A stretch of 64,000 nt of DNA from an uncultured Gemmatimonadota bacterium (GTDB lineage Bacteria > JAAXHH01). This document shows positions 3,098 through 43,302 of this stretch, one piece after another (position 1 is the first letter of the stretch; the number at the start of each line of letters is the position of its first letter). The stretch is taken from contig OX638340.1 of assembly GCA_951812955.1 (NCBI GenBank), forward strand, positions 1,216,001 through 1,280,000. The letters are read 5' to 3'. Below the pieces are notes generated by a model. The model had not been told where the DNA came from and ran no database searches. It saw only the letters and a program-made list of their open reading frames with translations. The translations under genes and the position numbers were made by a program.

Positions 3098-3115
3098 ACC
3101 AAAAAGGAATAACCC

Positions 3116-15845: not shown

Positions 15846-16868
15846 ATGACTATTCCCGTTGCCCAGGGTCCGCCGTTACCGTTTGAGCCCAGCCCCTACA
15901 TCGCGCTTACTGAAACGCAACAGAGCCGGTTCGACGAAGACGGCTTTATCCTGATTGAGGATGCCCTCTCGCCGAGCCACGTCGAACGGCTGCTCAAGGT
16001 CGTCGACACGCTCTACGACAATTTCCACAGGACCCACGGTACCCCGCCCGACGCGCCTTACCAGATTCGCAACGCCCTGATTCACCACGAGGAGCTTTTC
16101 GCGTTGATCGAATACCGGAAGATCCTGTCGCTGGTCGTGGACGTCATGGGGGTAAACATACAGATCCGCACTTCCCACGTGGACGTCCGTCCTCCCATGA
16201 AAGATCACATGGGTGGAGAACTGGGGGCCAAGGGCAGCTTTTTCCCATGGCATTCGGACGCACCCAATTACGGCTATCCCATTACCAACGGCCGGATTCC
16301 CTTTTTAGAAGTGAAAGTCGGGTACTACCTCACCGATCTCACCGAGCACAACAGCGGCGCCATATGCGTGGTGCGGGGCAGTCACAAGCTTTCGCCGGAA
16401 CTGATCCACGATCCGGATTACCAGATCGACCCGATGGACATCGTGGAAGTGCGTGTCAGGCCGGGTACCGCCATGGTCTGGCGCACGGCGCTCTGGCACT
16501 GCCTGGCCCCCAATCTCTCCGGGCGAACCCGCAAGTGCCTCTACTACGGTTACAACCACCGCTGGGCACGACCCGGGGACTACGACCGCCAGGACTCCGA
16601 CCTGTTGGCCCGTTGCACACCCGTTCAGCGCCAGCTGCTGGGTTCCAACACCACGGAGGACGGAGTGGTTTACCAGGACGGCGATCCGGCCCATCCGGCT
16701 TCCAGGTACTGGCGGCCCGAAACCGCGGACGTACCCCTGGAAGCATGGGCTGATAGTCAATATCGGAAAAAACACCGCAGGGAACGGAAGCTATGGGAGA
16801 AACGGAATAGGCTGCCCCCCGGCGCCGTGGGCGCGCCAATAGAGCAGGAGGAAAGCCTCCTGGATTAG
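15846..16868 (+). CDS. PhyH family Fe(II)/2OG oxygenase
   Basis: 340 aa. PWHSDAPNYGYP carries the HxD motif, and the overall architecture is PhyH-like. Confidence 0.6.
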   Translation: MTIPVAQGPPLPFEPSPYIALTETQQSRFDEDGFILIEDALSPSHVERLLKVVDTLYDNFHRTHGTPPDAPYQIRNALIHHEELFALIEYRKILSLVVDVMGVNIQIRTSHVDVRPPMKDHMGGELGAKGSFFPWHSDAPNYGYPITNGRIPFLEVKVGYYLTDLTEHNSGAICVVRGSHKLSPELIHDPDYQIDPMDIVEVRVRPGTAMVWRTALWHCLAPNLSGRTRKCLYYGYNHRWARPGDYDRQDSDLLARCTPVQRQLLGSNTTEDGVVYQDGDPAHPASRYWRPETADVPLEAWADSQYRKKHRRERKLWEKRNRLPPGAVGAPIEQEESLLD

Positions 16869-17774: not shown

Positions 17775-18506
17775 ATGACCGAAGCCGAAATCTTCGAATT
17801 CGACCTCAACGGATACATCATCTACAAGGACATGCTGTCCCGGGACCAGGTGGATCACATGAACGGAATCCTGGACGGGCACCTCGCCGACGATGCCCAC
17901 GGCTTCCAGTTCCTTACACTCGATCCGGTATTCATGGAACTCATGGCCCATCCACGCACGCTGCGGATCATCCGCACGATGATCGGTGAATGGATGCGTC
18001 TGGACCATGCGTACGGTATGCAGATGGACAGACAGTCCGTCGAACGGGGCCATGTGAAACCGAATCTTCACGGCGGCCTGCGCCACGACCACGGAGAACA
18101 CCAGTACCAGTGGCACGATGGAAGGATGTACAATGGACTCATCGTGGTCATGTACGCACTCAAGGACGTCCACCCTGGCGACGGCGGCTTGATCTGCGTC
18201 CCGGGAAGTCACAAGGCCAACATGAATTTCCGGCCACCGGTGGATTCCCACCTAGTGGTGAATCCCTCCTTCATGGCGGGCGACATGCTCATCTTCACCG
18301 AAGCGCTGGTCCACGGCACCACCACGTGGACTTCCGACCAGCGGCGGCGCTCCTTGCTCTATAAGTATTCGCCCGGGTACTCCGCCTGGGCCTCGGCCGA
18401 CGGGCTGGACGACGCCCGTGCCCTGGCAACTGACGATGTCCAGCGCGACCTGCTGAGGCCGCCCAGCGTCGGAAGACGGACGCCCGTGGAGATCCCGGAT
18501 GAGTGA
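17775..18506 (+). CDS. PhyH-like Fe(II)/2OG oxygenase, tandem paralog B
   Basis: 243 aa. Same length and N-terminus (MTEAEIFEFDLNGYI) as the gene at 16948. Confidence 0.6.
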   Translation: MTEAEIFEFDLNGYIIYKDMLSRDQVDHMNGILDGHLADDAHGFQFLTLDPVFMELMAHPRTLRIIRTMIGEWMRLDHAYGMQMDRQSVERGHVKPNLHGGLRHDHGEHQYQWHDGRMYNGLIVVMYALKDVHPGDGGLICVPGSHKANMNFRPPVDSHLVVNPSFMAGDMLIFTEALVHGTTTWTSDQRRRSLLYKYSPGYSAWASADGLDDARALATDDVQRDLLRPPSVGRRTPVEIPDE

Positions 18507-19638: not shown

Positions 19639-20418
19639 CTAGTAGCCCAGGAATCCCCCGTCCACCAACCATGTCGCTCCCGTAACGAAGCCTGCATCGT
19701 CGCTGGCCAGGAACACGGCCACGCGGCCGATTTCCTCGGGCCGGCCCCGGCGGTCCAGGGGCGTATGGCGAAAGTACTTCCCCGATGCGCCTCGACTGAC
19801 GGCGTCTTCTCTCGGATTATCGCTCTGCTCGGTGTGGATATCACCCGGCGCAATACTGTTCACCCGGATCCTGTGACGGGCCAGTTCGATCGCGGCCGAC
19901 TTGGTGAGCCCATCCAGGCCCGCCTTGCTGGCACAGTAGGCGGATGCGCCTTCCTGGGCCGCAAACTGGGCCACGGACGAGATATTGATAATGGCGCCTC
20001 CCACATCCCGGTCAATCATCCGGCGGGCCGCCTCCTGCGTCCCGATGAACGCGCCGGTAAGGTTGATGTCGACGACGTTGCGCCAGTGCTCGTCCGTCTC
20101 CTCCATGAAGGGCCGCAACTCCAGTGACATTCCGGTCAGCGCGGCATTGTTGATCATCACGTCTACCGGACCCAGCAGGTGTTCCGTCCGGTCCAGCAGC
20201 GCCGCTATGTCCTCGCGGCGGCGCACGTCGCACCGTTGCGCGTGGACGGAAAAGCCCTGACTCCTGAACCGCTCGGCCTCGTGCTCGGCGATCTCGACCC
20301 GACGCTGCGCAATCATCACCGCGGCCCCTGCTTCGGCACAACAGCGGGCAATACCGAGACCGATGCCGGTGCCGCCGCCGGTGACGACTACGGTTCTTCC
20401 CTTCAACCGGTCATTCAT
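19639..20418 (-). CDS. SDR family NAD(P)-dependent oxidoreductase
   Basis: TGGGTGIG cofactor motif, NNAA, and the catalytic YxxxK (YCASK). Confidence 0.85.
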   Translation of the reverse strand: MNDRLKGRTVVVTGGGTGIGLGIARCCAEAGAAVMIAQRRVEIAEHEAERFRSQGFSVHAQRCDVRRREDIAALLDRTEHLLGPVDVMINNAALTGMSLELRPFMEETDEHWRNVVDINLTGAFIGTQEAARRMIDRDVGGAIINISSVAQFAAQEGASAYCASKAGLDGLTKSAAIELARHRIRVNSIAPGDIHTEQSDNPREDAVSRGASGKYFRHTPLDRRGRPEEIGRVAVFLASDDAGFVTGATWLVDGGFLGY

Positions 20419-21667
20419 CGGTTACACCTCCCGCTTCCCTTCTCGCATCGCTCTCCATCAAAGACGCGACCTCTTTGGCGACAGCTTCGATCACCGGGAA
20501 ATCCCTTTCCTCCAGTGTACGTACGTCGAGCAGAAATCGGTTCCCCGCCAACCTGCCGAACACTGGTGGCGATTGTCGTCTGAACGCCGCGGCTAGTTGC
20601 CGGTTGGTCCATCCGTCGGGACGCAGCGCGACGGCGCGGGAAGGCAGTTGCTGGACCGGCAGGGCGCCGCCTCCGATTTCGGCGAGGGATTCCTCCACGG
20701 TCACTTCGACGCGGCAACCGAAACAGGCTGCGATGCATTCCGCGAGTCTTCGCGCCTTTAAATCGAGCGCTTCCATCGTCGCTGCGATCATGCCCGTAAC
20801 GGGGTGAGAATCCGCGAGCATAGCCGGATTATGAAAGAGCTCGAGCGTAGCCTGAAGGGCGGCATAGACCATCTTGTCGGCGCGAAAGGCCCGCATCAGC
20901 GGATCCTTTTTCATCTTGTCGAGCAAATCCCTCCGGCCGACGATGATTCCGGCCTGGGATCCGCCCAGCAGTTTGTCGCCACTGAAACAAACCACGTCGA
21001 TTCCGCGGCCGAGCGCGTCCGGGACGGTATATCCAATGTCCAGGCCGTGGTCTTCAAGGCCGACGAGGGCGCCGCTTCCCTGGTCGTACACGACAGGTAT
21101 ATCCCTTTCCCGACCCAACCTGGCCAGTTCCTCGAGTGGTGTGGAGACATCGAGGCCGGCAATATCAAAGTTGCTTCGGTGTACCGCCATGATAAGCGCC
21201 GTCTTTTCGGTGAGGGCGGCCCGGTAGTCTTCCGCTACCGTGTAATTTGTCGTACCGACGCCAACCAGGTCGACCCCACCCGCGGCCATGACGTCGGGCA
21301 TGCGGAAGGACCCGCCGATCTCCACCAGTTGGCCCCGGGAGATGACGACCTCCCCGTCCAGGGCGAGCGCGTGCAGGATCAGCATCACCGCGGCGGCGTT
21401 GTTGTTCACGACGATGGCGGACTCGGCCCCGGTGAGGGAGCAAAGCAGATCGGAAACCAGGTCGTGCCGAGAACCCCGCTTGCCCGTCTCCGCATCAATC
21501 TCGAGCGTACAGAATCCTTCGATTATGTCAGCCACTGCCCGCCGCGCATGCTCGGACATGACGGCCCGTCCCAGACCGGTGTGCAGGATCACGCCCGTGG
21601 CGTTCACCGCGGGTGCCAGTGCACTGATCGAACGTCCGCCTCTGGTTGGATTGGCCCGGTCTGTCAT
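20411..21667 (-). CDS. selA: L-seryl-tRNA(Sec) selenium transferase (selenocysteine synthase) SelA
   Basis: FSGDKLLGGSQAGIIVG...RADKMVYAALQATLELF matches the SelA PLP-lysine region (E. coli FSGDKLLGGPQAGII...RADKMTLAALEATL). The N-terminal TGVILHTGLGRA and IVVNNNAAAV motifs are also present. Confidence 0.9.
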   Translation of the reverse strand: MTDRANPTRGGRSISALAPAVNATGVILHTGLGRAVMSEHARRAVADIIEGFCTLEIDAETGKRGSRHDLVSDLLCSLTGAESAIVVNNNAAAVMLILHALALDGEVVISRGQLVEIGGSFRMPDVMAAGGVDLVGVGTTNYTVAEDYRAALTEKTALIMAVHRSNFDIAGLDVSTPLEELARLGRERDIPVVYDQGSGALVGLEDHGLDIGYTVPDALGRGIDVVCFSGDKLLGGSQAGIIVGRRDLLDKMKKDPLMRAFRADKMVYAALQATLELFHNPAMLADSHPVTGMIAATMEALDLKARRLAECIAACFGCRVEVTVEESLAEIGGGALPVQQLPSRAVALRPDGWTNRQLAAAFRRQSPPVFGRLAGNRFLLDVRTLEERDFPVIEAVAKEVASLMESDARREAGGVTDE

Positions 21668-22627: not shown

Positions 22628-25600
22628 GTGACCAACGACTCCTTCCAAGAACCATCGCTACGGGACAGATACCTCGAAGAACGGGGGACGGTCTTTCTCA
22701 CCGGCATACACGCCATCGTCCGTTTTCTCGTGGACAAGCAGCGGCGCGACCTGAATTCCGGCGGTCCCATAAGAAGCAGTTTCATATCCGGTTACGAAGG
22801 ATCGCCGCTGGGCGGGCTCGACCTCGAAATTCGCCAGCAGGCATCCCTGCTAAATGAAGCGGCGCCTTTTGTGCACCAGGCGGCGGTCAACGAGAAAACG
22901 GCGGCCGCGGCGGTACATGGCAGCCAGTTCGAAGGCGGCGTGGACGGGTTCTGGTACGGTAAAGCCCACGGCGTAAAATGGGCCCTAGACGAGTTCAGCC
23001 TGGCCAACATCGCGGGGACGGGCAGGGACAGCGGCGTGGTCCTCTTTGCCGGGGACGATCACATGGCGAAGAGCTCCGGTTACCCCGCCAGCAGCGAACA
23101 GGCCCTACGAGACGCGCGCATACCCGTATTCTACCCTTCGACGGTCTCCGAGGTCGTCAGCTACGGACATCACGCACTCGCACTGAGCCGGTACGCCGGC
23201 GTCCTCTGCGGACTTAAACTCGTCACCCCCATCTGCGACGGTGCGGAGACGGTGGATATCGATCCGGACCTTCCTGCGGTTCTGCTTCCCCCGGTCGGCC
23301 CGGTCGGCCAGGTCGGCACGGACGGACACCTTTTCGAGAAACACTTTCACCGGGTGGTCATTTCTACCCAGTCTGTCCCCTTCGAAGAAGAGCTTGCCAC
23401 GGTGCGCCTGGATATCGCCGGCGAGTACGCACGGCTGAACGGGATCGACACGGTCGATAATTCGGAATCGGACAGTTCTCTCGGTATTGTAGCGACTGGA
23501 AAGAGTTACGCGGATATCAAGCAGGCGCTAAGACTGGTGCGCCTCGAGGACCGTATACCGATCCTGAAACTGGGCGTGATCTACCCGGTAAACCGGCAGA
23601 CCATCCGGGATTTCGCCCACGGATTCCAAAACGTGCTGGTCGTCGAGGAAAAAGGGCCCTTCGTGGAAGAAGCGGTAGCCCAGGCCCTCGTAGGCACCGG
23701 CGTATCCAACGTATACGGAAAACGCGGACCAGACGGGCAGCACCTCGTGCCCGCCTACGGAGAACTGAATCCCGATCTGCTCACCCTGCGCCTTGGTCCG
23801 ATACTGCAGGGGATCTTCCCGACGGCTCCCATTTACGACCGCCTGGAAGAACTGAAAACCATCGAGGAAAGGGATCCCGGCACCTTCCTGCGCCGAACCG
23901 CCCATTACTGTCCGGGTTGTCCGCACAGCGTATCGGCCCGGGCGCCTTCCGGGGAAGTCGCTGGCGGCGAGATCGGCTGCTCCTCTCTGGACGCTTACAT
24001 CGAGGCGGACGGCAGAGGCGTCCGGTACATCCCCACCATGGGGCTGGGCGGCGCCATCTACAACGGGATGTTCCCCTTCAACGGGAACGAACACCTGTTT
24101 CAGAATATCGGTGACGGCACCGTGCTGCACAGTGGATTGATCACGCTATTCAGTTCCATATCCCACGGAGCCAACATCACCTACAAGATCCTCTGGAACC
24201 ACGTCGTGGCCATGACCGGCGGGCAGGGCATCACGGGACAGCCGACGCTGGACGATTTCACGCTCATACTCCTGGGCATGGGCGTGAGAGACGTCACGGT
24301 CGTCAGCAAATTCCCGGAGCGGGTGTCGCTCAAGCGCGCCCGGGCCGCGGTGAATACGGATCAGCGTCTCCTGCTCGAACCACGGGACCGGCTCCAGTCC
24401 GCCCAGGAAAGCCTTTCCCGGAAGCCGGGCGTAAAGGTGCTGATCTACGACCAGGAATGCGCCACGGAGTACCGCAGACGCCGCAAGCGTGAAGACCTTG
24501 CCCCGGACCGGTACGTTTACATCCACGAAAGGGTGTGCGAAGGGTGCGGAGACTGCGGTCAGCAGTCCATGTGTCTTGCGCTCGAGCCCAGGCAGACCGA
24601 GTTCGGACCCAAGACCGCCATACTCCAGTCGGCGTGCAACCAGGACCTCTCCTGCCTCAAGGGCGATTGTCCCTCATTTATCTCAGTCGAACCGGTCGGG
24701 GACAGCAGGCCCGTGAAAAAGGAATGCCCGGTTCTCGGCGAAACCGACCTGGATGAGCCTGCACGCAAAGCGGCCATAGCGGGCGAATACGCCATACACC
24801 TCATTGGGATCGGGGGCACCGGTGTCGTGACCGCGGCCCACCTGCTCGCCTTCGCAGCACTTTTTGACGGGAAGAAGGTGAGTGAGATGAACCGCACCGG
24901 ACTGGCGCAGAAGGGTGGTCCGGTGGAATCGCCCATCGTGCTGGGGGACAGGGAAATTCCTCCGTCCAGTTACATCGCGGCCGGCCGGTGCGACCTCTAC
25001 CTGGCGGCGGACATCGCCGGTGCGGTGAATCCCCTTAATCTGCAGGTCGCCTCCTCGGACAGAACCGTCGCCGTGGTAAGCCGTTCCGGCGTCCCGACCG
25101 CACAGATGGTATACGATCCCCAGGTGCCCGGCGCTGACGTCCCGGCCATGGAAGCGCTTATCGACCGCCATACCCGGTCGAAGAACAATGTCTACATCGA
25201 TGCGCAGGACTACGCGATGAAGCTCTTCGGCAACCACATCGTGGCGAACGTGTTTCTCCTGGGCGCAGCCTACCAGGCCGGATACATCCCCCTGCGGGGC
25301 GGGAGTATCGAACGCGCCATCCGTTTGAACGGACAGGCGGTCGACGCCAATCTCCAGGCGTTCCGATGGGGACGCATGGCCGTACTCGACCCGGCCCGGC
25401 TGGACGAAGCCGTGGCGGTGCCAGAACCCGATTCGGACACCCTGATTCAGCGTTACGAGCGCCAACTCGGCCACAAACTGTCACGAATCTACAAGGCGCT
25501 GATCGACCGGATACCCGTTGCCGAGGAATCCTTCCGAAAGTCATGGGTGACTCGCGTGGCCGAACTGATCGCATACCAGGACACGACACTCGCCGAACGG

Positions 25601-26185
25601 TTCGTCGACAGGATTGAACGGATCTTCGATGCCGACAAACGGACAGGGGGATCGGACCGCGGATACCTGCTCACTTCGCACGCGGTGTTCATGCTGCACA
25701 AGCTCATGGCCTACAAGGACGAGTACGAGGTGGCCCGGCTGCTGACGGACCCGACCGAAACCGGCGTCGCAGACCGTTTCGACGGTCCGGTCAAGGTGTC
25801 TTACCATCTTCACCCGCCGCTGTTGCGAGCCTGGGGACTCGATCGTAAACTCCGGCTGGGGCCATGGTTCAGGCCGATGCTTCGGATCATGGCACCTTTC
25901 AAGCGGCTGCGGGGAACCCGATTCGATCCCTTTGGATATACCGCGGCCCGGCGTGAGGAACGTGAACTCGTGACCTGGTATGAATCGTTGTTGTCCCAGG
26001 CCTTCGACTCACTCACCGCGGAGAACTACCCCGAAGTCTCCGAACTGCTGCGGCTGCCCGACGAGATCCGCGGCTACGAACAGGTCAAGCGCCGCTCTGT
26101 GATCAGGGTGAAGAAGAAGGCGGATGAAATACTCGCCGGCCTCCTTCGCCGGGACGAGAGCCTGAAAGCAGAAAGCCGGCCCTGA
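22628..26185 (+). CDS. Indolepyruvate:ferredoxin oxidoreductase family protein (fused IorA-IorB, 2-oxoacid:ferredoxin oxidoreductase)
   Basis: 1185 aa. It has a TPP-binding N-terminal region, a CPGCPH Cys cluster, a 4Fe-4S-like CEGCGDCGQQS motif, and a C-terminal IorB-like domain. GTG start. Confidence 0.85.
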   Translation: MTNDSFQEPSLRDRYLEERGTVFLTGIHAIVRFLVDKQRRDLNSGGPIRSSFISGYEGSPLGGLDLEIRQQASLLNEAAPFVHQAAVNEKTAAAAVHGSQFEGGVDGFWYGKAHGVKWALDEFSLANIAGTGRDSGVVLFAGDDHMAKSSGYPASSEQALRDARIPVFYPSTVSEVVSYGHHALALSRYAGVLCGLKLVTPICDGAETVDIDPDLPAVLLPPVGPVGQVGTDGHLFEKHFHRVVISTQSVPFEEELATVRLDIAGEYARLNGIDTVDNSESDSSLGIVATGKSYADIKQALRLVRLEDRIPILKLGVIYPVNRQTIRDFAHGFQNVLVVEEKGPFVEEAVAQALVGTGVSNVYGKRGPDGQHLVPAYGELNPDLLTLRLGPILQGIFPTAPIYDRLEELKTIEERDPGTFLRRTAHYCPGCPHSVSARAPSGEVAGGEIGCSSLDAYIEADGRGVRYIPTMGLGGAIYNGMFPFNGNEHLFQNIGDGTVLHSGLITLFSSISHGANITYKILWNHVVAMTGGQGITGQPTLDDFTLILLGMGVRDVTVVSKFPERVSLKRARAAVNTDQRLLLEPRDRLQSAQESLSRKPGVKVLIYDQECATEYRRRRKREDLAPDRYVYIHERVCEGCGDCGQQSMCLALEPRQTEFGPKTAILQSACNQDLSCLKGDCPSFISVEPVGDSRPVKKECPVLGETDLDEPARKAAIAGEYAIHLIGIGGTGVVTAAHLLAFAALFDGKKVSEMNRTGLAQKGGPVESPIVLGDREIPPSSYIAAGRCDLYLAADIAGAVNPLNLQVASSDRTVAVVSRSGVPTAQMVYDPQVPGADVPAMEALIDRHTRSKNNVYIDAQDYAMKLFGNHIVANVFLLGAAYQAGYIPLRGGSIERAIRLNGQAVDANLQAFRWGRMAVLDPARLDEAVAVPEPDSDTLIQRYERQLGHKLSRIYKALIDRIPVAEESFRKSWVTRVAELIAYQDTTLAERFVDRIERIFDADKRTGGSDRGYLLTSHAVFMLHKLMAYKDEYEVARLLTDPTETGVADRFDGPVKVSYHLHPPLLRAWGLDRKLRLGPWFRPMLRIMAPFKRLRGTRFDPFGYTAARREERELVTWYESLLSQAFDSLTAENYPEVSELLRLPDEIRGYEQVKRRSVIRVKKKADEILAGLLRRDESLKAESRP

Positions 26186-26269
26186 AAAGGACCGGCTCCC
26201 TACCTTAATACTGTCACACTTCAGTTTCGGTTCAGTGCGAGAGGCTTCGCGGCCTCCTGGCTCTGCTTC

Positions 26270-27484
26270 TCAGCTGCTCACCAGCACCTTCTTGAGTGCG
26301 GCGATGAAGGCCTCGTTTTCCGCCTGCAGGCCGGAGGTGACTCGCAGCCAGTTATTCATCCGCCAGCGCCGCTTGCCGTTGCCGACGAGTACGTTGTACT
26401 CTTCGAATAGTTTGCGGGTAACCTCGTCCGCGTCCTTGCGTACGTTGACGAGCATGAAACTGGACTGGCTGGGCACGTACTCGAGTCCCATCTCATCGAA
26501 CTGGCTCATGAGATAGTCATGACCGTCCCATGCGGCCTTCCGTGCACGGTCCTGGTAATCTCCATCCTCTATACAGGCCTCTGCGGCGACCACCGAGAGC
26601 GAACTGACCCGGCCGCCCTTGTTGTCCTCGAGCTTTTCGATAACATGGGGCCGCGCCAGGCCGTAGCCGATACGCAGGCCGGCCATACCCATGATCTTGG
26701 AAAAAGTACGGGTCACAATGACGTTTTCATGGTCAAGGATCAGCGGTGCCGCGCCGATGCGGTCCTGGGGATTTCGGGCGAACTCGATATAGGCCTCGTC
26801 CACGAAGACCATGACGTCGGAGGGTATCCCGCTCACAAACTTCTTGAGGTCTTCGAAAGGCGCGATGATCCCTGTCGGATTTCCCGGAGAGGTTACGACC
26901 ACGACTCGCGTATTCTCGGTGACGGCCGCCTTCATGGCATCGAGGTCCTGGTGGAAATCCCGGGTTGTGCGTACCAGGCGTGCACTGGCGCCGTAATTCC
27001 GGGCCGTACGTACCACGCCGCCGTAACCGGGCGCGGCCTCGATCATCTGTCCGCCGTCACGCAGGTAGGCCGACGCGATGGCAAAGAGTACCTCGGACGA
27101 TCCGCATCCGAGGGTGACCCACGGTTCCGGCCCTTCAGAGGAGTTGTTGGAAGGAATGACGACCGGCAGTCCGTGCCGTTCCGCGATCTGGCCGTAGAGA
27201 CCCCGGCCCCGGTAGTACCGGTTGAACTTGTAGACGTACTGCATTATGGCCTCGACGGCGCGGGGCGACGGACCGATCGGGTTCTCGTTGCTGCTCAGCC
27301 GGACTAATCCCTCGGGTACACCCCAACCGCGGACGGGCCGCGCACGCGGGCCCGCCACCATCTGGGCCACGGCTTCGTAACTTCCCAGGGAAGCCGCACC
27401 GGCCCCGATCGCAAGCCCCCTGAGAAACTTCCTTCTCGTGAACCCGGATGCTCCCAGATTCACCGCCTTTATCATATTCGACAT
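26270..27484 (-). CDS. PLP-dependent aminotransferase (HisC-like class I/II) with twin-arginine (Tat) signal peptide
   Basis: The N-terminus has TRRKFLRGLAIGAGAASLGSYEAVA, a Tat motif S/T-R-R-x-F-L. The aminotransferase body has TFSKIMGMAGLRIGY (the PLP lysine) and NPTG. Confidence 0.8.
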   Translation of the reverse strand: MSNMIKAVNLGASGFTRRKFLRGLAIGAGAASLGSYEAVAQMVAGPRARPVRGWGVPEGLVRLSSNENPIGPSPRAVEAIMQYVYKFNRYYRGRGLYGQIAERHGLPVVIPSNNSSEGPEPWVTLGCGSSEVLFAIASAYLRDGGQMIEAAPGYGGVVRTARNYGASARLVRTTRDFHQDLDAMKAAVTENTRVVVVTSPGNPTGIIAPFEDLKKFVSGIPSDVMVFVDEAYIEFARNPQDRIGAAPLILDHENVIVTRTFSKIMGMAGLRIGYGLARPHVIEKLEDNKGGRVSSLSVVAAEACIEDGDYQDRARKAAWDGHDYLMSQFDEMGLEYVPSQSSFMLVNVRKDADEVTRKLFEEYNVLVGNGKRRWRMNNWLRVTSGLQAENEAFIAALKKVLVSS

Positions 27485-27528
27485 AACGCCATCCTTTGAT
27501 CAGATGCTCGATACGGTCCCGCGAACGA

Positions 27529-28743
27529 TCAGCTGCTTACCAGCACCTTCTTGAGTGCCGCCATGAAGGCCTCGTTCTCCTCCTGCAGGCCGGACGTCAC
27601 CCTGAGCCAGGTGTCCATTTCCCAGCGGCGCTTCCCGTTGCCGACCATCACGTTGTACTCTTCCCGAAGCTTGCGGACGACTTCGTCCGCGTCCTTGTGC
27701 ACGTTTATGAGCATGAAGCTGGACTGGCTGGGGACGTAGTCGATCCCCATCTCGTCGAACTGGCTGGAGAAGTACTCCTGTCCGTCCCACGTCACCTTTC
27801 GCGCCCGGTCCTGGTAGTCGTGATCTTCCATTCCCGCAGCCGCGGCGTTGGTCGACAACATACTGGGCCGGCCGCCCTTGTTCTGGTTCAGCTTTTCGAT
27901 GACCTCGGGACGCGCCAGGCCGTAGCCGACACCCAACCCCGCCATGCCCATGATCTTGGAAAATGTACGGGCAACGATCACGTTCGGGTGGTCCAGAATC
28001 AGCGGCGCAGCGCCAATCCGATCGGCGGGATTCTTCGAGAACTCGATATAGGCCTCGTCGACGAATACGATCACGTCCGAGGGAACCTCCTGGACGAACT
28101 TCTTCACGGCGTCCGAGGGAACGAGCACGCCGGTCGGGTTGCCAGGATTCGTTATGACCACCACCCTGGTGTTCTCGGTAATGGCGGACTTCATCGCATC
28201 GAGGTCCTGCTGGAAGCCGCTTGCCAGCGGAACCCACTTCACCGTACCGCCGTTCGGCTCCGCGACACGGAAGACGCCGGCGTAACCGGGCGTCGCCTCC
28301 ACCACCTCGGCCCCGTCTCGCAGATAGGCGGATGCGACGGCATAAAGCACTTCCGACGATCCGCAGCCCAGGGTGACCCAGGCGCCGGCCGGCGTGAAGG
28401 CATTGGGAGCCCACTCCACCACGGGCAGTCCGTGCCGCTCGGCGATCCTGGCATAGATGTCCCTGTTCCGGTTGTATCGATTGAACGAATACACGTTTTC
28501 CAGTACGGCTTCCACCGCCCGCGGCGACGGTCCGATTGGCATTTCGTTGCCGCTCAGTCGGACGAGTCCTTCGGGTACGCCCCAGCCACGCACGGGCCGT
28601 GCATTGGGACCGGAGATCATCTGCGCCACCGCCTCGTAACTTCCCAGCGAAACGGCGCCCGCGCCTGCCATAATGCCTTTGATGAAGCCTCGCCGCGAAA
28701 ATCCGGAAGGGGCCTCCATCGTAGTTTCAGCCCTGTCTGCCAT
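27529..28743 (-). CDS. PLP-dependent aminotransferase (HisC-like) with Tat signal peptide, tandem paralog
   Basis: Start trimmed to ATG 28743, preceded by AAGGAG. The N-terminus has SRRGFIKGIMAGAGAVSLGSYEAVA. It is about 70% identical to the gene at 26270 and has TFSKIMGMAGLGVGY. Confidence 0.75.
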   Translation of the reverse strand: MADRAETTMEAPSGFSRRGFIKGIMAGAGAVSLGSYEAVAQMISGPNARPVRGWGVPEGLVRLSGNEMPIGPSPRAVEAVLENVYSFNRYNRNRDIYARIAERHGLPVVEWAPNAFTPAGAWVTLGCGSSEVLYAVASAYLRDGAEVVEATPGYAGVFRVAEPNGGTVKWVPLASGFQQDLDAMKSAITENTRVVVITNPGNPTGVLVPSDAVKKFVQEVPSDVIVFVDEAYIEFSKNPADRIGAAPLILDHPNVIVARTFSKIMGMAGLGVGYGLARPEVIEKLNQNKGGRPSMLSTNAAAAGMEDHDYQDRARKVTWDGQEYFSSQFDEMGIDYVPSQSSFMLINVHKDADEVVRKLREEYNVMVGNGKRRWEMDTWLRVTSGLQEENEAFMAALKKVLVSS

Positions 28744-28954
28744 GATAAACTCCTTGATGGATTGAGTGTGCAGGCTGCGGTGAAGTTCCCGGAATGCAGA
28801 ACAAACCATGAGCCTTCGCGGCCTGTAATAGTAATATACCGGGAATTCGATCCTGTAATTCAATCAATTTAATGCGCCGGAGGCAACATGACAATATAAT
28901 CGTAAGCGCAATGGATCGAGCCGGTTGACGGGACTTGCCAGGCTACTGCTCAAT

Positions 28955-29977
28955 TTACGCCGCGCACAGGTAGTCGTCCACTTCGGCCAGTCCCATGCCT
29001 TGGAGCGCCTGGCGTATCAGCTTCCGCGCGCCCCTGGAGGAAACGGCGACGACGAGCATTGGACGACTATGGCGGGACCAGGCGTCCATCAGTCCACCGG
29101 GACCGATCACCGGCGCTCCCCGCAGTATGCCGCCGATCTTACGGGGAGAAATATCGACAAAGGCATCGACCGTGCGGCCCATGCGGACAAGGTGCTTCGA
29201 CAGCCTGCGGCCGGTCTGGCCCGCGCCCCACACGATCAGACCGTCCCGGCCGTCGAGAGGGCCGTCGATGAGAAACCGGGCCTTGACGCGGAGGAAGTTC
29301 TCCACGGAGTACCTGGAGTCCGTTCTCGTCAACCGCCCGTCGTGCTCCCGCCAGTATAACAGGACCTCCGGTACCTTGGCGAACCGCAGGCCCGCTGCGT
29401 GGCAGCGAAGCCACAGGTCGTAATCCTCCGGCCAGCCGAGATCCCGGTATCCTCCGAGCTTCACGAAATCATCACGGCGCACCATGGCCGACGGGTGGGC
29501 GACAGGGCTTTCTATGTATATCTCGCGGGCGATGTCTTCGGGCTCGACAAGGCTGTTCAACCAGGCTTCGTAGATCTTCATGCCCTCACCAACCGACCCG
29601 TCGGCGAAGGTTTCCACGAGCGACCCGGCAACGCTGATATCCGGTCTGGATTCCAGCAACTCCGCCTGCCTGGCAAGTCGACTTGGATGCATGCGGTCAT
29701 CGGCGTCCATGCGGGCGACATACGTTCCTTCGCATACCGATAATCCGCGGTTCAAGGCCTCGACCAGCCCAACGCGGCCGGCGTTGACCGGCTTGATTCT
29801 CCGGTCCCCACGCCGCCAGGCCTCCAGGATCATCCCGCTGTCGTCGTCCGAACCGTCGTCGACCGCGATGACCTCGAAATCGGCCAGCGTCTGCCCGGTG
29901 ATGCTTTTCAATGCATCGGGAAGCGTTCCGGCGGCATTGTATACAGGCATCAGGATGGATACACGAGGTGGGGACAT
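28955..29977 (-). CDS. Glycosyltransferase family 2 protein
   Basis: ILMPVYNAAGTLPDALKSITGQTLADFEVIAVDDGSDD is the GT-A DxD region. Confidence 0.8.
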   Translation of the reverse strand: MSPPRVSILMPVYNAAGTLPDALKSITGQTLADFEVIAVDDGSDDDSGMILEAWRRGDRRIKPVNAGRVGLVEALNRGLSVCEGTYVARMDADDRMHPSRLARQAELLESRPDISVAGSLVETFADGSVGEGMKIYEAWLNSLVEPEDIAREIYIESPVAHPSAMVRRDDFVKLGGYRDLGWPEDYDLWLRCHAAGLRFAKVPEVLLYWREHDGRLTRTDSRYSVENFLRVKARFLIDGPLDGRDGLIVWGAGQTGRRLSKHLVRMGRTVDAFVDISPRKIGGILRGAPVIGPGGLMDAWSRHSRPMLVVAVSSRGARKLIRQALQGMGLAEVDDYLCAA

Positions 29978-32695: not shown

Positions 32696-34147
32696 ATGAC
32701 TCCCCACAACGCCCATCTACTCACAGTCGATGATATCCACCGCTTCATCACGGACGGGTACGTCCAGGTGAATGCCGGTCTTCCCGCGGAGTTCCACCGG
32801 GACCTGTACGAAAAAATCGAGACCGTGCTCGAGGAAGAAGGCAACCCGGGAAACAATATTCTGCCCCGGATCCCCGAGATCCGGAGGGTCTTCGATCAAC
32901 CCTCCGTACGGGGCGCGTTGACCAGTCTGCTCGGACCCGGTTACCTGATGCATCCCCACAGATACTGCCACCTGAACAAGCCGGGTAGCCCCGGCCAGCA
33001 GTGGCACAAGGACGATTACGTCTTCGACCACAACGTACGGCACGCGCGATGTCGCTGGGTCATGGCCTTCTACTATCCCCAGGACGTGAGCGAGGACATG
33101 GGACCCACGGGCATCCTGCCCGGCAGGCAGCACTACAATCGCATCTCAGACTGCGATGCGGCCCGGTCCACCGAGTCCGCATTGGGACTGACCGGCCCCG
33201 CGGGAACGGTCTCCATCGTCAATTTCGATTCCTGGCACCGGGCCACGGCAAATGCCAGCGACAAGAAAAGGTACATGCTGAAGTTCCAGTTTACCCGTAC
33301 GCGGGAACCGGGTGGACCCTCCTGGGGAGGCCGGAAGGCAGAATGGAATCCTTCGAACGGTAACGCCCATCCCGCGGTTTCGGAGATCGTGTGGAACTGG
33401 ATGTCAGGGTTGGAGCCAGCCAGTGTTAAACCCAACGGCGCGTCCATCGACCGGTACCTGTCCGCCCTGGACGGCCCGGACGAGGGAGCACGGCTTCAGG
33501 CCGCATACGAATTAGGGCGGCGAGGAGATAGTGCGGTAGAACCTCTGGTAGAACGACTGTGCGCGACCCAGGTAGAGGATGCGCTGGCGAGCGTGCCCAA
33601 AAACCCGGCGAATCCCACGGGAGGGAATCCATCGGAATTGACGTCCGCATATGCCCTTTCAGCTATGGGGCGCCCCGCGGTCAGCCGACTGGAGGAACTG
33701 TTGGAAGACGACAAGTGGTGGGTCCGGGCCGCCGCCGCGGACGTGCTGGGCGACATCGGCCTGCCGGCGTCTACCTCCCGGCCCGCGCTGTTGCGTTCCC
33801 TCGGCGAGGATGAAAACGCATGGGTGAGGCGAAACGCGTCTGAATCCCTGGCGGTCCTGGGCGATTTCGTCCCGGGTGACGTCCCGGTCCTTCGAAGCGC
33901 GCTCGCGGATGAAGACGAACGGGTACGGCGAAACATCGCCTTCGCCCTGGCAAGGCACCCTTTGCGGGACGCAAGCCTGGTCGACGACCTTGCGGTGCGT
34001 TCTGTGGAAGACGAAGGGCGCTATGTCCGGTACTACGCCCAGGCAGCCGCGGCCAGGATGGCGGGGAATGCGGGTAACGAGTCCCTGTGGGAGGCGATGC
34101 TCGCGACGCGATGGTGTCCGCTGACGACACCGAAGAGCGCGTTCTGA
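32696..34147 (+). CDS. PhyH-family dioxygenase domain fused to C-terminal HEAT/armadillo-like repeats
   Basis: The N-terminal ~230 aa are PhyH-like (QQWHKDD). The C-terminal ~200 aa contain repeated ...VRRNA/VRAAAADVLGDIG... helical repeats of the HEAT (PBS lyase-like) type. Confidence 0.6.
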   Translation: MTPHNAHLLTVDDIHRFITDGYVQVNAGLPAEFHRDLYEKIETVLEEEGNPGNNILPRIPEIRRVFDQPSVRGALTSLLGPGYLMHPHRYCHLNKPGSPGQQWHKDDYVFDHNVRHARCRWVMAFYYPQDVSEDMGPTGILPGRQHYNRISDCDAARSTESALGLTGPAGTVSIVNFDSWHRATANASDKKRYMLKFQFTRTREPGGPSWGGRKAEWNPSNGNAHPAVSEIVWNWMSGLEPASVKPNGASIDRYLSALDGPDEGARLQAAYELGRRGDSAVEPLVERLCATQVEDALASVPKNPANPTGGNPSELTSAYALSAMGRPAVSRLEELLEDDKWWVRAAAADVLGDIGLPASTSRPALLRSLGEDENAWVRRNASESLAVLGDFVPGDVPVLRSALADEDERVRRNIAFALARHPLRDASLVDDLAVRSVEDEGRYVRYYAQAAAARMAGNAGNESLWEAMLATRWCPLTTPKSAF

Positions 34148-37240: not shown

Positions 37241-38764
37241 TTGCAGGACCACTTTCAATCGCACTGGAAAATCCGTCAGGATCCTTTCAACCCCCTTCTC
37301 GATGAAAGCCCGCAAGCTTCAGCGGTGTCCGCGAAGAAAACACGGACGGTAGTGAAAGGGCTTCGAGTGACACGCAAGCCGAATATCATCTATCTGCTGG
37401 CGGACGACTGGGGATACGGGGATGTAAGCTGTCTCAATCCCGATTCCAAAATCCCGACGCTGCATACCGATCGGCTCGCAGGCGAAGGGATGGTGTTTAC
37501 GGATGCCCACAGCAATTCCGCGGTATGCACGCCCACGCGATACGGCGTGCTGACGGGACGTTACTGCTGGCGATCGCGGCTGAAGCGCGGGGTCTTGAAC
37601 GGCTATTCCGAACCGTTGATCGAGGAGGGACGCATGACGGTCCCTACGCTGCTTCGCGACCAGGGATATACGACGGCCTGCGTGGGCAAGTGGCACCTGG
37701 GACTGGGCTGGCAGACCTCCGGAGGAGTGGAGACGGTAAATAAGGAGACGGTGCGTTTCTCCGCTCCTTTGTCCCATGGTCCCCATACGGTGGGATTCGA
37801 CCATTCATACATCATCCCGGCGTCCCTCGATATGGAGCCCTACTGCTATATCGAAGATGGGGAGGTCGTGGAGCTTTCGGTCGAAGAGATAGCGGACTCG
37901 CCTCGGCCGGCCTTTTGGCGTGGAGGGGCCTGCGCGCCGGGGTTTTCCCATGAGACCTGCCTGCTGGAACTGACGATGCGGGCCGAGGGATTTATCCATC
38001 GGCACGCGAAAGAACATGGCGATCGGCCATTCTTTCTTTACTTCCCCGCACCTTCTCCCCATACGCCTCATTTTTCGCGAGACCGATTTGCCGGCCGGAG
38101 CCAGGCGGGCGTGTATGGAGATTACGTGACGGAGCACGACTGGAGTATCGGGCGAATCCTGGAGGCGGTGAAGCGCAATGGCCTGGAGGAGAATACGCTG
38201 ATTATCGTGACGAGTGACAATGGCTGCCACGCAGAGCCTATCGGGTTGAAGGAAAAGTATGATCACCTTGGAAATTACGTTTTCCGGGGTCAGAAGTCAG
38301 ATGCCTGGGACGGCGGTCACCGCATCCCGTTTATCGCGTCGTGGCCGGGCGTGATCGAACCAGGGTCACGATGTGAAAAGACGGTTTGTCTGACGGATCT
38401 GCTTGCGACCGTTGCCGGGATCTGCGAAGTGGACCTGCCGGTAGACGCCGGCGAAGACAGCTGCAATATCCTGCCCTATCTGCGGGGCGAACAGGCAGAG
38501 ACGATCCGTGAAGCGACGGTGCATCACTCGATCAGCGGGGAATTCGCCATACGGAAGGACAGGTGGAAGCTGGTAGAATGCCGCGGTTCGGGTGGGTGGA
38601 CCCTGAAAGAATCGGATGTGCCCGGGGATGCGCCGCCGATGCAACTCTACGATATGGTTTCCGATCCGGGAGAACGGTTAAACCTGTTTAGCAAAAAGCC
38701 CGGTGTGGTCGAGGATTTGCTCGACACGCTGAATCGGTACCGGACCGGCGGCCGGAGCACGTGA
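37241..38764 (+). CDS. Arylsulfatase (formylglycine-dependent sulfatase family)
   Basis: IIYLLADDWGYGD, the CTPTR FGly motif and GKWHLG are present. No obvious signal peptide. The start may be the internal GTG near 37352. Confidence 0.85.
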   Translation: MQDHFQSHWKIRQDPFNPLLDESPQASAVSAKKTRTVVKGLRVTRKPNIIYLLADDWGYGDVSCLNPDSKIPTLHTDRLAGEGMVFTDAHSNSAVCTPTRYGVLTGRYCWRSRLKRGVLNGYSEPLIEEGRMTVPTLLRDQGYTTACVGKWHLGLGWQTSGGVETVNKETVRFSAPLSHGPHTVGFDHSYIIPASLDMEPYCYIEDGEVVELSVEEIADSPRPAFWRGGACAPGFSHETCLLELTMRAEGFIHRHAKEHGDRPFFLYFPAPSPHTPHFSRDRFAGRSQAGVYGDYVTEHDWSIGRILEAVKRNGLEENTLIIVTSDNGCHAEPIGLKEKYDHLGNYVFRGQKSDAWDGGHRIPFIASWPGVIEPGSRCEKTVCLTDLLATVAGICEVDLPVDAGEDSCNILPYLRGEQAETIREATVHHSISGEFAIRKDRWKLVECRGSGGWTLKESDVPGDAPPMQLYDMVSDPGERLNLFSKKPGVVEDLLDTLNRYRTGGRST

Positions 38765-38869
38765 AACCGCGAGGTAGGTGAGACCTTCGAATCAGGTAAG
38801 GCCGCGAGGTACTTGAGACCGCGAGGCAGGGTAGGCCGCGAGGTACGTGAGCAAAGGAGTGTGGATGCG

Positions 38870-40714
38870 ATGAACGGCAAGAGACCCAACGTCATACTGG
38901 TTATCACTGACGACCAGGGATACGGGGACCTGGGTTGTACGGGCCACCCCTGGTTGAGGACGCCAAGTATCGATGCATTTCACCGCGACGCGGTCCGCCT
39001 TGCGGATTTCCACGTTTCGCCTCTGTGTACGCCGACGCGCGGAGCCTTGATGACGGGACGGCGACCCGTACGAAACGGCGCATGGGCGACCTGCTGGGGA
39101 CGGTCCATCCTACGGAAGTCCGAGACGACCATGGCGGACGTTTTCAGCGAGGCCGGGTACCGAACCGCCATGTTCGGAAAGTGGCACCTGGGCGACAACT
39201 ATCCCTATCGTCCCCAGGACCGGGGATTCCGGCACGTGGTGGCCCACAAGGGCGGGGGCGTGGGACAGACGCCCGATTTCTGGGGCAACAATTACTTCGA
39301 CGACACCTATTTCCAAAACGGGGAGCCCGTGGAACACGCCGGATACTGCACGGACGTGTGGTTCGACGAGGCGATCCGTTTCATCGAGGGGTGCGCGGCC
39401 GGCCGGTCCGCCGGTTCGTCGCCAGCGCAGAGGCAGCGCCAGGAAGCATCCCCGGCCAGTCCGAACGGAGCGGACAGAGCGGACAGTCCGAACGGAGCGG
39501 ACGGAGCGGACGAGCCGTTCTTCGTTTATCTGGCAACCAACGCACCGCACACCCCTTATCTCGTGTCCGAGGAATACGCCCATCCGTACCAGGGTATTCA
39601 AGATATACCGGAACCCGAGTTCTGCGGAATGATCGCGAACATCGACGAGAATTTCGGCCGACTGCGGCGTACGCTGGCACAACTGGGTCTGGAAGAAAAC
39701 ACCATCCTGGTCTTCATGACCGACAACGGGAGCTCCGGTGGCAGTGAACTCGATGAAAACCAGCACGCGGTGCGAGGTTACAACGCGGGGATGCGGGGCA
39801 AGAAGGGCTCCTACTACGACGGCGGTCATCGCGTGCCCTTCTTCCTTCGCTGGCCTGGAGGCGGTCTCGGGGGAGGACGTGACGTGGACGAGATGACCCT
39901 CCACGTAGACATCCTGCCGACACTCGTCGCGTTGTGCGGGTTGGACGAACCCGATGTGGACTTCGACGGGGTCAGTGTGGCGCCGCTACTTCGTGGTGAG
40001 CGGTCGGGCCTGCCCGGCGACCGGGTGCACTTTCTTCAGTACCGGCAGGATACCGTGCCTCCGGAGAAATGGACCAGCGCGGTCATGACCCGACGTTGGC
40101 GGCTGGTGCGGGGAAAGGAACTGTACGATATCAAGGCCGATCCGGGACAGTGGTGTGATGTCGCCCGGGAGCATCCCGACGTGGTGGACCGGCTGCGATG
40201 TAATCACGACGCCTGGTGGGACGAGATATCACCCGGTCTCGATGTGTATTGCCCCATCGAACTGGGAAGCCCCGCCGAGAATCCCACCCGCCTCTGCGCC
40301 ATGGACGTCCTTGGCGACGTGGCCTGGCACCAGACCCATATTGCCCGGGCACAGGAGAGCAGCGGGACCTGGGCCGTCGAGATCGAAAGGCCGGCCCGCT
40401 ACCGGTTCAATCTTCGCCGGTGGCCCGCCGAACGCGAGCTTGCGATCGACGGCGTGATACCGCCGGACGAGGCGCGCCGCCTTATCTATGCGCCTGAAGA
40501 TGCGGGCGCGCTGGCCATTCAGCCCGTCGAAGCACGCCTGTCCCTGTTCGGTCAAACACACCGCATGACAGTGAGTAAAGGCGATACGGCCGTCGAATTC
40601 ACCCTCGAAATCACACATACGGGTGTGACGAACCTGGAAGCCTCCTTCGTCGACGTGACCGGAGATGCCAGGGGAGCGTTCTATGTGGATGTCGAGCGGC
40701 TGGATGAGGTTTAG
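38870..40714 (+). CDS. Arylsulfatase (formylglycine-dependent sulfatase family) with low-complexity insertion
   Basis: VILVITDDQGYGD, CTPTRGALMTGR and GKWHLG are present. No signal peptide. It contains an in-frame 2 x 27-bp duplication encoding SPNGADRAD SPNGADGAD. Confidence 0.85.
   Translation: MNGKRPNVILVITDDQGYGDLGCTGHPWLRTPSIDAFHRDAVRLADFHVSPLCTPTRGALMTGRRPVRNGAWATCWGRSILRKSETTMADVFSEAGYRTAMFGKWHLGDNYPYRPQDRGFRHVVAHKGGGVGQTPDFWGNNYFDDTYFQNGEPVEHAGYCTDVWFDEAIRFIEGCAAGRSAGSSPAQRQRQEASPASPNGADRADSPNGADGADEPFFVYLATNAPHTPYLVSEEYAHPYQGIQDIPEPEFCGMIANIDENFGRLRRTLAQLGLEENTILVFMTDNGSSGGSELDENQHAVRGYNAGMRGKKGSYYDGGHRVPFFLRWPGGGLGGGRDVDEMTLHVDILPTLVALCGLDEPDVDFDGVSVAPLLRGERSGLPGDRVHFLQYRQDTVPPEKWTSAVMTRRWRLVRGKELYDIKADPGQWCDVAREHPDVVDRLRCNHDAWWDEISPGLDVYCPIELGSPAENPTRLCAMDVLGDVAWHQTHIARAQESSGTWAVEIERPARYRFNLRRWPAERELAIDGVIPPDEARRLIYAPEDAGALAIQPVEARLSLFGQTHRMTVSKGDTAVEFTLEITHTGVTNLEASFVDVTGDARGAFYVDVERLDEV
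39458..39511 (+). repeat. In-frame 2 x 27-bp tandem duplication inside the sulfatase gene
   Basis: agtccgaacggagcggacagagcggac is followed by agtccgaacggagcggacggagcggac. Confidence 0.8.
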
Positions 40715-43289: not shown

Positions 43290-43302
43290 CCACTGCAATA
43301 GC

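Follow-up and report, generated by a model that had tools for sequence, protein, structure and literature searches.

Predicted twin-arginine signal peptides on a tandem pair of HisC-like aminotransferases from an uncultured Gemmatimonadota bacterium

We analyzed a 64,000-nt stretch of DNA from an uncultured Gemmatimonadota bacterium (assembly GCA_951812955.1, contig OX638340.1, positions 1,216,001 to 1,280,000; hereafter the window), in which two adjacent genes on the (−) strand, named here AT1 and AT2, encode HisC-like pyridoxal 5′-phosphate (PLP) aminotransferases that begin with predicted twin-arginine translocation (Tat) signal peptides. Our preferred reading, to which we assign a probability of roughly 0.7, is that AT1 and AT2 are paralogous, Tat-exported periplasmic PLP transaminases with the fold of HisC and the aromatic aminotransferases (ArATs). 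An earlier note on this DNA, made from the sequence alone, had placed the tandem pair at 26270–28743, which proved exact, and every peptide quoted in it (FTRRKFLRGLAIGAGAASLGSYEAVAQ, FSRRGFIKGIMAGAGAVSLGSYEAVAQ, and TFSKIMGMAGL in both AT1 and AT2) was found. The features of the pair are listed below in window coordinates, with residues assigned by alignment and Shine-Dalgarno (SD) motifs read from the sequence.

28750..28755, (−) strand: SD motif AAGGAG, 5′ of the AT2 ATG
27529..28743, (−) strand: AT2, 404-aa paralogue of AT1, upstream gene of the pair, open reading frame (ORF) from ATG
28621..28743, (−) strand: AT2 predicted Tat signal peptide, codons 1–41, with S-R-R-G-F-I-K-G, h-region IMAGAGAVSLG, and SYEAVA↓Q; RR codons at 28690–28695
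27955..27957, (−) strand: AT2 Lys263, PLP lysine, invariant in 81 sequences
27931..27933, (−) strand: AT2 Gly271 (GGT), aligned with the PLP-phosphate-binding arginine (R222 of Escherichia coli HisC, R240 of the Mycobacterium tuberculosis histidinol-phosphate aminotransferase [HspAT])
27485..27528, (−) strand: 44-nt spacer from the AT2 stop to the AT1 start, free of terminator-like sites
27492..27496, (−) strand: SD-like motif AAGGA, 5′ of the AT1 ATG
26270..27484, (−) strand: AT1, 404-aa precursor of a HisC/ArAT-like (subfamily Iβ) PLP aminotransferase, downstream gene of the pair, ORF from ATG
27362..27484, (−) strand: AT1 predicted Tat signal peptide, codons 1–41, with an n-region, T-R-R-K-F-L-R-G, h-region LAIGAGAASLG, and c-region SYEAVA↓Q; RR codons at 27431–27436
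26696..26698, (−) strand: AT1 Lys263, PLP Schiff-base lysine (K214 of E. coli HisC), invariant in 81 sequences
26672..26674, (−) strand: AT1 Arg271 (R222 of E. coli HisC)

AT1 and AT2 are 72% identical over 392 residues without gaps (BLASTP). An identical AT1 sequence is present on public Gemmatimonadota contigs, and in a public long-read assembly that carries it (ENA ERZ18545484, ptg000094l), an independent gene caller assigned 404 aa to both genes; the AT2 ORF can be extended upstream as far as a TTG at 28863. A promoter and terminator scan of 26100–29100 yielded nothing above the expectation from shuffled sequence, with one promoter-like site at 28894–28866 on the (−) strand and one terminator-like site within AT1. 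Because the 44-nt spacer contains no terminator-like site, the two genes are likely co-transcribed. Elsewhere, the spacer of such pairs measures 16 nt (in a relative from Tara Oceans data) and 45 nt (in the loci L004–L006).

Predicted Tat signals and start codons

The N-termini of AT1 and AT2 share the pattern S/T-R-R-x-F-[LI]-[KR]-G, followed by a Gly/Ala-rich h-region and A-V-A↓Q. Specifically, the h-regions GLAIGAGAASLGSY and GIMAGAGAVSLGSY, which precede this site, have a mean Kyte-Doolittle hydropathy of ~1.1, and h-regions that are rich in Gly/Ala and low in hydrophobicity are typical of Tat signals. When the isolated N-termini were compared with the TIGR01409 TAT_signal_seq profile, AT1 scored 24.5 and AT2 19.1 bits, both above the cut-off of 16.7. 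In a six-frame motif scan of the window, only AT1 and AT2 combined an RR motif with a hydrophobic stretch at the N-terminus.

The signal is conserved well beyond the pair. In an alignment of 36 homologues with 35–87% identity, no sequence departs from R17, R18, or F20, and conservation reaches ≥90% at S16, G23, A40, and Q41, while the n-region ahead of them is variable. The Tat motif followed by a hydrophobic stretch ending in AVA, as described in the earlier note, is thus borne out both by the TIGR01409 score and by these invariant positions, and its suggested check for retention of RR in orthologues came out positive. A database search returned ~80 full-length relatives with 35–92% identity, all of which keep the signal; they come from metagenome-assembled genomes (MAGs) labelled Gemmatimonadetes, Latescibacteria, Zixibacteria, and other candidate divisions. 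Cytoplasmic HisC proteins (360–370 aa) turn up only at ~35% identity and start ~40 residues further in. The signal of AT2 is likewise conserved in the homologues of its own clade (P0021–P0029).

Next, we compared codons 1–41 of AT1 with those of an orthologue that is 79% identical. The nucleotide differences fall 7, 4, and 30 times on the first, second, and third codon positions, respectively; of the codons that changed, 23 did so synonymously and 10 non-synonymously. Because the differences concentrate at third positions, the RR region of AT1 is translated and under purifying selection. The SD motifs lie 7–12 nt upstream of the ATGs of AT1 and AT2, and similar motifs precede orthologous ATGs (AAGGAG in the Tara Oceans locus L099). 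True start codons downstream of the RR motif, the outcome that the earlier note had named as fatal to its proposal, are contradicted by the SD motifs, the third-position bias, and the conservation of the N-terminus. In an AlphaFold2 model of AT1, built from the alignment, the predicted local distance difference test (pLDDT) score stays below 50 for residues 1–49, which are not part of the globular fold, and a helix is predicted at residues 17–30.

Taken on the sequence evidence, an extracytoplasmic location is the best reading for both proteins, and their export appears very likely. Some indirect support for Tat in this genome comes from a Gemmatimonadota contig (L001) that also carries a Tat-type aminotransferase: a 2Fe-2S small subunit of a xanthine-dehydrogenase-family molybdoenzyme, encoded at 2465–3127 on the (−) strand of that contig, starts with FTRRGFLKGAGAGA and has the N-terminus FTRRGFLKGAGAGAV..AAAQ, which suggests that Tat signals are in use in this lineage for classical substrates of the pathway.

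Family assignment, fold, and active site

Both proteins match Pfam Aminotran_1_2 (PF00155) far above its gathering score of 19.7, AT1 with 167.5 bits (E = 6e-49) and AT2 with 155.3 bits (E = 3e-45). Together with the PLP lysine present in both, these matches agree with the earlier description of AT1 and AT2 as full-length, HisC-like class I/II aminotransferases. The scores against the more specific NCBIfam profiles are as follows.

hisC (TIGR01141): AT1 220.6 bits, AT2 221.5 bits; cut-off 276.55, not reached
PRK09105 (NF006580): AT1 217.9 bits, AT2 218.1 bits; cut-off 444, not reached
PRK03321 (NF002878): AT1 187.4 bits, AT2 198.2 bits; cut-off 374, not reached
PtaA (NF051461): AT1 166.6 bits, AT2 171.5 bits; cut-off 500, not reached

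The PRK09105 profile aligns from residue 14–15 of AT1 and AT2 and thus extends over the RR motif. Because the scores against HisC, PtaA, and PRK09105 stay below their cut-offs, AT1 and AT2 belong to none of these curated families; we place them in HisC-like subfamily Iβ, as members of an uncharacterized clade.

The AlphaFold2 model of AT1 has an overall pLDDT of 84.6, with confident prediction starting at about residue 55, and its top Foldseek matches are 3FFH, 3LY1, and 4R2N (probability 1.00, TM-score 0.75–0.87). Among solved structures, the nearest in sequence (E = 2.7e-36) is PDB entry 3LY1, a functionally uncharacterized protein from Erwinia carotovora subsp. atroseptica that structural genomics deposited as a putative histidinol-phosphate aminotransferase. 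It is also one of the two best fold matches, and like AT1 and AT2, it has no P-F/Y at the position that contributes to the partner-subunit pocket. However, it is only ~28% identical, and the deposited chain begins after the region where a signal peptide would lie. The HisC structures from E. coli (1FG3/1GEX) and Listeria (3FFH) and the M. tuberculosis ArAT (Rv3772, 4R2N) share with AT1 and AT2 the fold, the catalytic K/D/N/Y/T/S residues, the C-terminal Arg, the motifs NENP.GPSP and DEAYxEF, and ~24–28% identity, but they are cytoplasmic enzymes without a signal peptide, and their lid, R322 column, and partner-subunit P-Y/F are all changed in AT1 and AT2.

Residues Y90, N202, D229, Y232, T260, S262, K263, and R381 are invariant among the 81 sequences and correspond, in this order, to Y55, N157, D184, Y187, T211, S213, K214, and R335 of E. 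coli HisC. The equivalent of D229 contacts the pyridine nitrogen, those of N202 and Y232 contact O3′, and R381 is the C-terminal substrate arginine. The roles of HisC/ArAT residues, including that of the arginine bound to the PLP phosphate, and the obligate dimer with two-chain active sites are taken from work on the M. tuberculosis HspAT and ArAT (PMC4703992). Judged from these residues, the catalytic apparatus of a transaminase appears intact in AT1 and AT2.

The substrate side of the active site departs from HisC. The predicted mature N-terminus, Q-M-[VI]-x-G-P-x-A-R-P-V-R-G-W-G-V-P, is strongly conserved, and in it G-P-x-A-R-P-V-R-G-W-G-V-P replaces the HisC lid motif P-Y-x-P-G-K (whose Tyr is Y20 in E. 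coli). Gly368 occupies the column of E. coli R322, the first arginine that binds phosphate or carboxylate, with an invariant Arg373 five residues downstream, though the alignment of this loop is uncertain. The Pro-Tyr/Phe of the partner-subunit pocket (P260-Y261 of the mycobacterial HspAT, P245-F246 of the mycobacterial ArAT) is Gly290-Gly291 in AT1 and AT2. Among the HisC residues that bind histidinol phosphate, only the equivalent of R335 (R381) is kept. The altered pocket suggests a different, possibly bulkier, amino substrate. Because the pocket differs, a Tat signal is present, and a his-operon context is absent (no his genes occur near AT1 and AT2, whose neighbours are genes for a leucyl-tRNA synthetase [LeuRS], a family 2 [GT2] glycosyltransferase, and an indolepyruvate-oxidoreductase-family protein), a biosynthetic HisC role is argued against, and AT1 and AT2 appear to be neither HisC enzymes of histidine biosynthesis nor PtaA orthologues.

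The two paralogues differ at position 271, which is Arg in AT1 and Gly in AT2. Arg is also found in the rest of the AT1 clade, in clades C and D (defined below), and in cytoplasmic HisC; all members of the AT2 clade, and the related clades P0028–P0044, have Gly, Ser, or Ala there (81-sequence table). The PLP-phosphate arginine is not known to be among the residues that are invariant in all aminotransferases, so its loss does not exclude AT2 from the class I/II aminotransferases. An R-type and a G-type protein are combined in AT1 and AT2 and again in the L004–L006 pair (P0047/P0039); at locus L013, the gene upstream of that for the G-type P0037 also encodes an RR-bearing protein.

Relatives, paralogues, and competing readings

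Tat export of a PLP transaminase is already established and is not new here. PtaA (periplasmic transaminase A) of the fluorescent pseudomonads, a normal PLP transaminase, is exported by Tat in folded form with its PLP and acts in the periplasm (Ringel, Dräger & Brüser 2017, reviewed in PMC6206403); its reaction turns the glutamate of the pyoverdine fluorophore into 2-oxoglutarate (PMC6206403; see also PMC9305348) and also occurs in species that make no pyoverdine (PMC6206403). PtaA, AT1, and AT2 are all HisC-like by profile score and carry an N-terminal RR signal. However, AT1 and AT2 reach only 167–171 bits, far below the equivalog cut-off of 500 for PtaA (Pseudomonas fluorescens/Pseudomonas aeruginosa), and they differ further in their origin from a Gemmatimonadota MAG, in the tandem duplication, and in the missing PLP-phosphate arginine of AT2. 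The genes of the window that were scanned include no pvd or nonribosomal peptide synthetase genes. A Pseudomonas locus considered as a PtaA comparator (L039) was rejected, since it encodes the cytoplasmic HisC of a pheA-hisC-tyrA-aroA cluster.

PRK09105 ties with hisC as the best match of AT1 and AT2 (218 bits), and its profile covers the RR motif. We searched 1.84 billion representatives at 50% identity with HMMER, which returned 1,142 relatives at E ≤ 1e-30, and among the best 150, a motif scan found an RR signal in 62 of the 149 that were newly returned (~40%). Ten RR-bearing representatives were compared with NCBIfam, and all of them, like AT1 and AT2, fell short of the cut-offs of PRK09105 (444 bits) and PtaA; the two profiles align onto most of the ten RR N-termini from profile positions 2–9, PRK09105 from positions 2–4. 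Tat-bearing HisC-like enzymes therefore form a radiation wider than the curated PRK09105 subfamily. The earlier note had called the export of such enzymes rare, a view that does not hold given the PtaA precedent (PMC6206403) and the RR signals in ~40% of the nearest representatives: the feature is common in this branch, is captured by curated models, and has been shown experimentally once. Our literature search for other Tat-exported aminotransferases turned up the pyoverdine review alone.

A neighbour-joining tree and an identity matrix divided the family into four groups. The AT1 and AT2 clades are sisters with ~70% identity, the related G/A-type clades (P0028–P0044) are 56–62% identical to both, clade C (402–404 aa) lies at ~50%, and clade D (413–442 aa) at ~40%. 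The hosts are marine Gemmatimonadota, Latescibacteria-like bacteria, and Zixibacteria, with the closest relatives annotated as Gemmatimonadota MAGs. Genomes keep several Tat-bearing paralogues, two to about four each; for example, AT1-, AT2-, and clade-C-type proteins (P0016, P0024, and P0061) apparently lie on one Gemmatimonadota contig, and OZ252103.1 (L016) encodes a distant RR-bearing paralogue (~38% identical) and apparently also the AT1-type P0015. The tandem pair is retained in the Tara Oceans relative (L097/L099), and another lineage (L004–L006, L013) likewise has Tat-bearing paralogues in tandem. The duplication, which the earlier note had taken as a sign of a dedicated extracytoplasmic function, is thus kept; the role that the note linked to neighbouring genes finds no support (see below). 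A contig profile search with the alignment labelled A1 added no close loci, as the matches listed (at least 600) were ≤38% identical and mostly cytoplasmic HisC.

According to the reading that we prefer, AT1 and AT2 would be synthesized with a twin-arginine signal peptide that is later removed, and each would fold, take up PLP, and dimerize in the cytoplasm. The Tat translocase, whose presence in the source genome is assumed, would then export the folded proteins to the periplasm, where signal peptidase would cut after A-V-A and expose the conserved mature N-terminus from Gln41, i.e., the N-terminal lid of the subfamily. There, the enzymes would transaminate an amino compound with a 2-oxo acid by a ping-pong mechanism, as PtaA does in Pseudomonas.

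Several observations weigh against this proposal. The shorter Pfam model TAT_signal (PF10518) scored only 16.6 and 19.9 bits on AT1 and AT2, respectively, below its gathering score of 22.7. Neither a TatA motif expression run on the window nor a tblastn search of the window and 100 loci (1.48 Mb) with E. coli TatA/B/C returned a match, which is uninformative at a coverage of ~20 kb per genome. AT2 has lost the PLP-phosphate arginine, so its hold on PLP could be weaker, which would be awkward for a protein that has to pass the Tat translocase with its cofactor. Transaminase chemistry is deduced for both proteins from family membership, and the same fold includes the decarboxylase CobD and the cyclodehydratase GntC, which were weaker NCBIfam matches. 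Finally, none of the compared loci has a conserved neighbour that hints at a substrate or at a periplasmic source of 2-oxo acid.

Several other readings of the pair were weighed. AT1 and AT2 could form a single periplasmic heterodimer, in which case the duplication would serve asymmetric sites (R271 versus G271) rather than two enzymes. In three lineages, the genes follow one another on one strand at a distance of 16–45 nt; the fold forms obligate dimers in which both chains contribute to each active site (PMC4703992); an R-type is united with a G-type protein in the window pair as well as in the L004–L006 pair; and positions 91 and 271, beside the PLP-phosphate contacts, are among those that set the AT1 clade apart from the AT2 clade. 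We nevertheless regard the heterodimer as doubtful, since A-type proteins also occur singly without an adjacent partner (P0040 in L009, P0044 in L014, and P0043 in L011), the R/G gene order flips between lineages, and position 271 looks labile, with syntenic metH-adjacent loci carrying either an R-type (L001) or an A-type (L014) protein. It is quite unlikely, in our view, that the pair is exported by Tat but performs other PLP chemistry, such as decarboxylation, beta/gamma-elimination, or an oxidative decarboxylation like that of PvdN. CobD threonine-phosphate decarboxylase (125–128 bits) and GntC (122 bits) were among the profile matches and CobD structures among the Foldseek matches, the substrate pocket departs from HisC/ArAT, and the periplasmic source of the 2-oxo-acid co-substrate is unclear, a point also raised in the PtaA review (PMC6206403). 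Against this, the best-scoring models (HisC, PRK09105, and PtaA, the top two with 218–221 bits) are all transaminases, and the full catalytic set of a transaminase, including the C-terminal carboxylate/phosphate-binding Arg381, is invariant.

The fate of the N-terminus admits two further readings. Some Tat substrates retain their signal as a membrane anchor, and the helix modelled at residues 17–30 would suit an uncleaved RR N-terminus that holds AT1 and AT2 on the outer face of the cytoplasmic membrane; given an h-region of ~13 residues that is rich in Gly/Ala/Ser and, at a hydropathy of ~1.1, weak for a stable transmembrane helix, together with a nearly invariant small-x-small A-V-A↓Q site (A40 and Q41 at ≥90%), we deem such a signal-anchor very improbable. 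Hardly any credence is left for ordinary cytoplasmic histidinol-phosphate aminotransferases whose start codons were placed too far upstream, even though relatives are publicly annotated as histidinol-phosphate aminotransferases and an internal Met42 directly follows the predicted cleavage site. The extension is conserved as protein, with RR and F invariant; synonymous changes outnumber non-synonymous ones (23 versus 10), and third positions account for 30 of the 41 nucleotide differences; SD motifs precede the upstream ATGs, and the independent gene caller gave 404 aa for both genes; the TIGR01141 score stays below its cut-off, and the sequences have neither the lid Tyr motif of HisC nor an Arg in the R322 column; and neither gene lies in a his operon.

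Periplasmic PLP chemistry is represented by very few characterized enzymes, PtaA and PvdN in pyoverdine tailoring; periplasmic racemases are further PLP enzymes of this compartment. What is new here is thus the uncharacterized, expanded clade rather than the principle of a Tat-exported PLP transaminase, and the RR-bearing HisC-like aminotransferases form a large, mostly uncurated radiation. Once found, the substrates of AT1 and AT2 would reveal how extracytoplasmic amino transfer is used, be it in nitrogen scavenging, the tailoring of secreted metabolites, or modification of the envelope, and would touch on the supply of 2-oxo acids and the recycling of PLP and pyridoxamine 5′-phosphate in the periplasm, a question that the PtaA literature leaves open (PMC6206403). 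The public label "histidinol-phosphate aminotransferase" on the relatives is probably wrong, and such mislabelling would inflate the predicted completeness of the histidine pathway in MAGs. A far broader picture, which we consider speculative and on the whole unlikely, would be a widespread amino-group-transfer system in the periplasm of marine bacteria of the Fibrobacteres-Chlorobi-Bacteroidetes (FCB) group (Gemmatimonadota, Latescibacteria-like bacteria, and Zixibacteria), with several Tat-exported paralogues per genome, asymmetric R/G heterodimers, and a pocket that the Gly-Gly replacement and the new lid would enlarge for bulky molecules on their way out of or into the cell, such as peptides, siderophore-like compounds, or envelope glycoconjugates, instead of free proteinogenic amino acids.

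Genomic neighbourhood and other genes of the window

The pair lies in a block with the order LeuRS, GT2 glycosyltransferase, AT2, AT1, a convergent fused indolepyruvate-oxidoreductase-family gene, Amidase_2, a SelA-like gene, a short-chain dehydrogenase/reductase (SDR), creatininase, and PhyH. From LeuRS to PhyH, this block is conserved in the Tara Oceans relative with 70–79% protein identity, which is synteny at the family level only. The convergent gene at 22628–26185 on the (+) strand, separated from AT1 by 84 nt, encodes a fused 1185-aa protein of the indolepyruvate/2-oxoacid:ferredoxin oxidoreductase family with a C-terminal DUF6537. Its adjacency to AT1 is kept in the Tara Oceans relative, and an arylpyruvate link between the pair and this gene is conceivable.

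Other lineages show other neighbourhoods. In a Latescibacteria-like lineage, a clade-C and a G-type RR protein are encoded in tandem, 45 nt apart, among IDO, glyoxalase, CMD, and PhyH genes. A single Tat-type aminotransferase is divergent from metH (cobalamin-dependent methionine synthase) in L001, L009, and L014, and the metH-adjacent protein is an R-type member of clade C in L001 and an A-type protein in L009 and L014, the two types being ~49% identical. Another Tat-type aminotransferase adjoins genes for a peptidase S15 and a nitroreductase. The neighbourhood of AT1 and AT2 is not conserved across lineages, and because no neighbour is, the context gives no substrate.

Three candidate links were rejected, discounted, or kept only as a hint. 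A functional link to metH was dismissed, as the loci L001, L009, and L014 are mutually syntenic and count as one observation. Aromatic catabolism (the indolepyruvate oxidoreductase in the window and IDO in L005, L006, and L013) appears each time within one lineage and amounts to a weak hint. Adjacency to PhyH (L009, L013, and L014) was discounted, PhyH genes being abundant, with at least four confirmed by Pfam in the window.

These PhyH-family Fe(II)/2-oxoglutarate dioxygenases are encoded at 7773–8630, 15846–16868, 17775–18506, and 32696–34147, the last of them fused to HEAT repeats, and a further candidate, found by reading, lies at 60192–61292. A sulfatase-family pair occupies 37241–38764 and 38813–40714, both on the (+) strand, and neither protein has a recognizable N-terminal signal peptide. 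Sulfatases are usually exported; those of the window are either cytoplasmic, or their starts need checking. The earlier proposal that the pair processes amino compounds released by the neighbouring sulfatases and dioxygenases finds no backing, as those proteins lack an N-terminal signal peptide and are encoded 4–12 kb away in other transcription units, and the context of Tat-type aminotransferases differs by lineage outside one family-level synteny block.

Further genes of the window were noted in passing. SelB, the selenocysteine elongation factor, is encoded at the window start (85–2088, [+] strand), and the SelA-family PLP protein of the block (418 aa; 20411–21667, [−] strand) lies ~18 kb from it and overlaps the SDR gene (19639–20418) by 8 nt; the SelA-like gene may not be a selenocysteine synthase but a non-tRNA paralogue. 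From 2000 to 6000, the GC content drops to 0.47–0.48, compared with ~0.60 otherwise, and this island holds two genes (3883–4566 and 4718–5863, [−] strand) for an AAA_21/AAA_15 ATPase beside a DUF4276 protein, an arrangement that resembles a two-gene module gained by horizontal transfer, perhaps with a role in defence. A 901-aa fusion of a DUF1537-type four-carbon acid-sugar kinase (SBD_N + NBD_C) with a PdxA-family dehydrogenase is encoded at 43111–45816 on the (+) strand, and in the Tara Oceans relative the equivalent position holds a PALP + PdxA fusion. At 51473–52948 on the (+) strand, a dual-specificity-phosphatase-like domain (PTP-SAK) is fused to an ADP-ribosylglycohydrolase.

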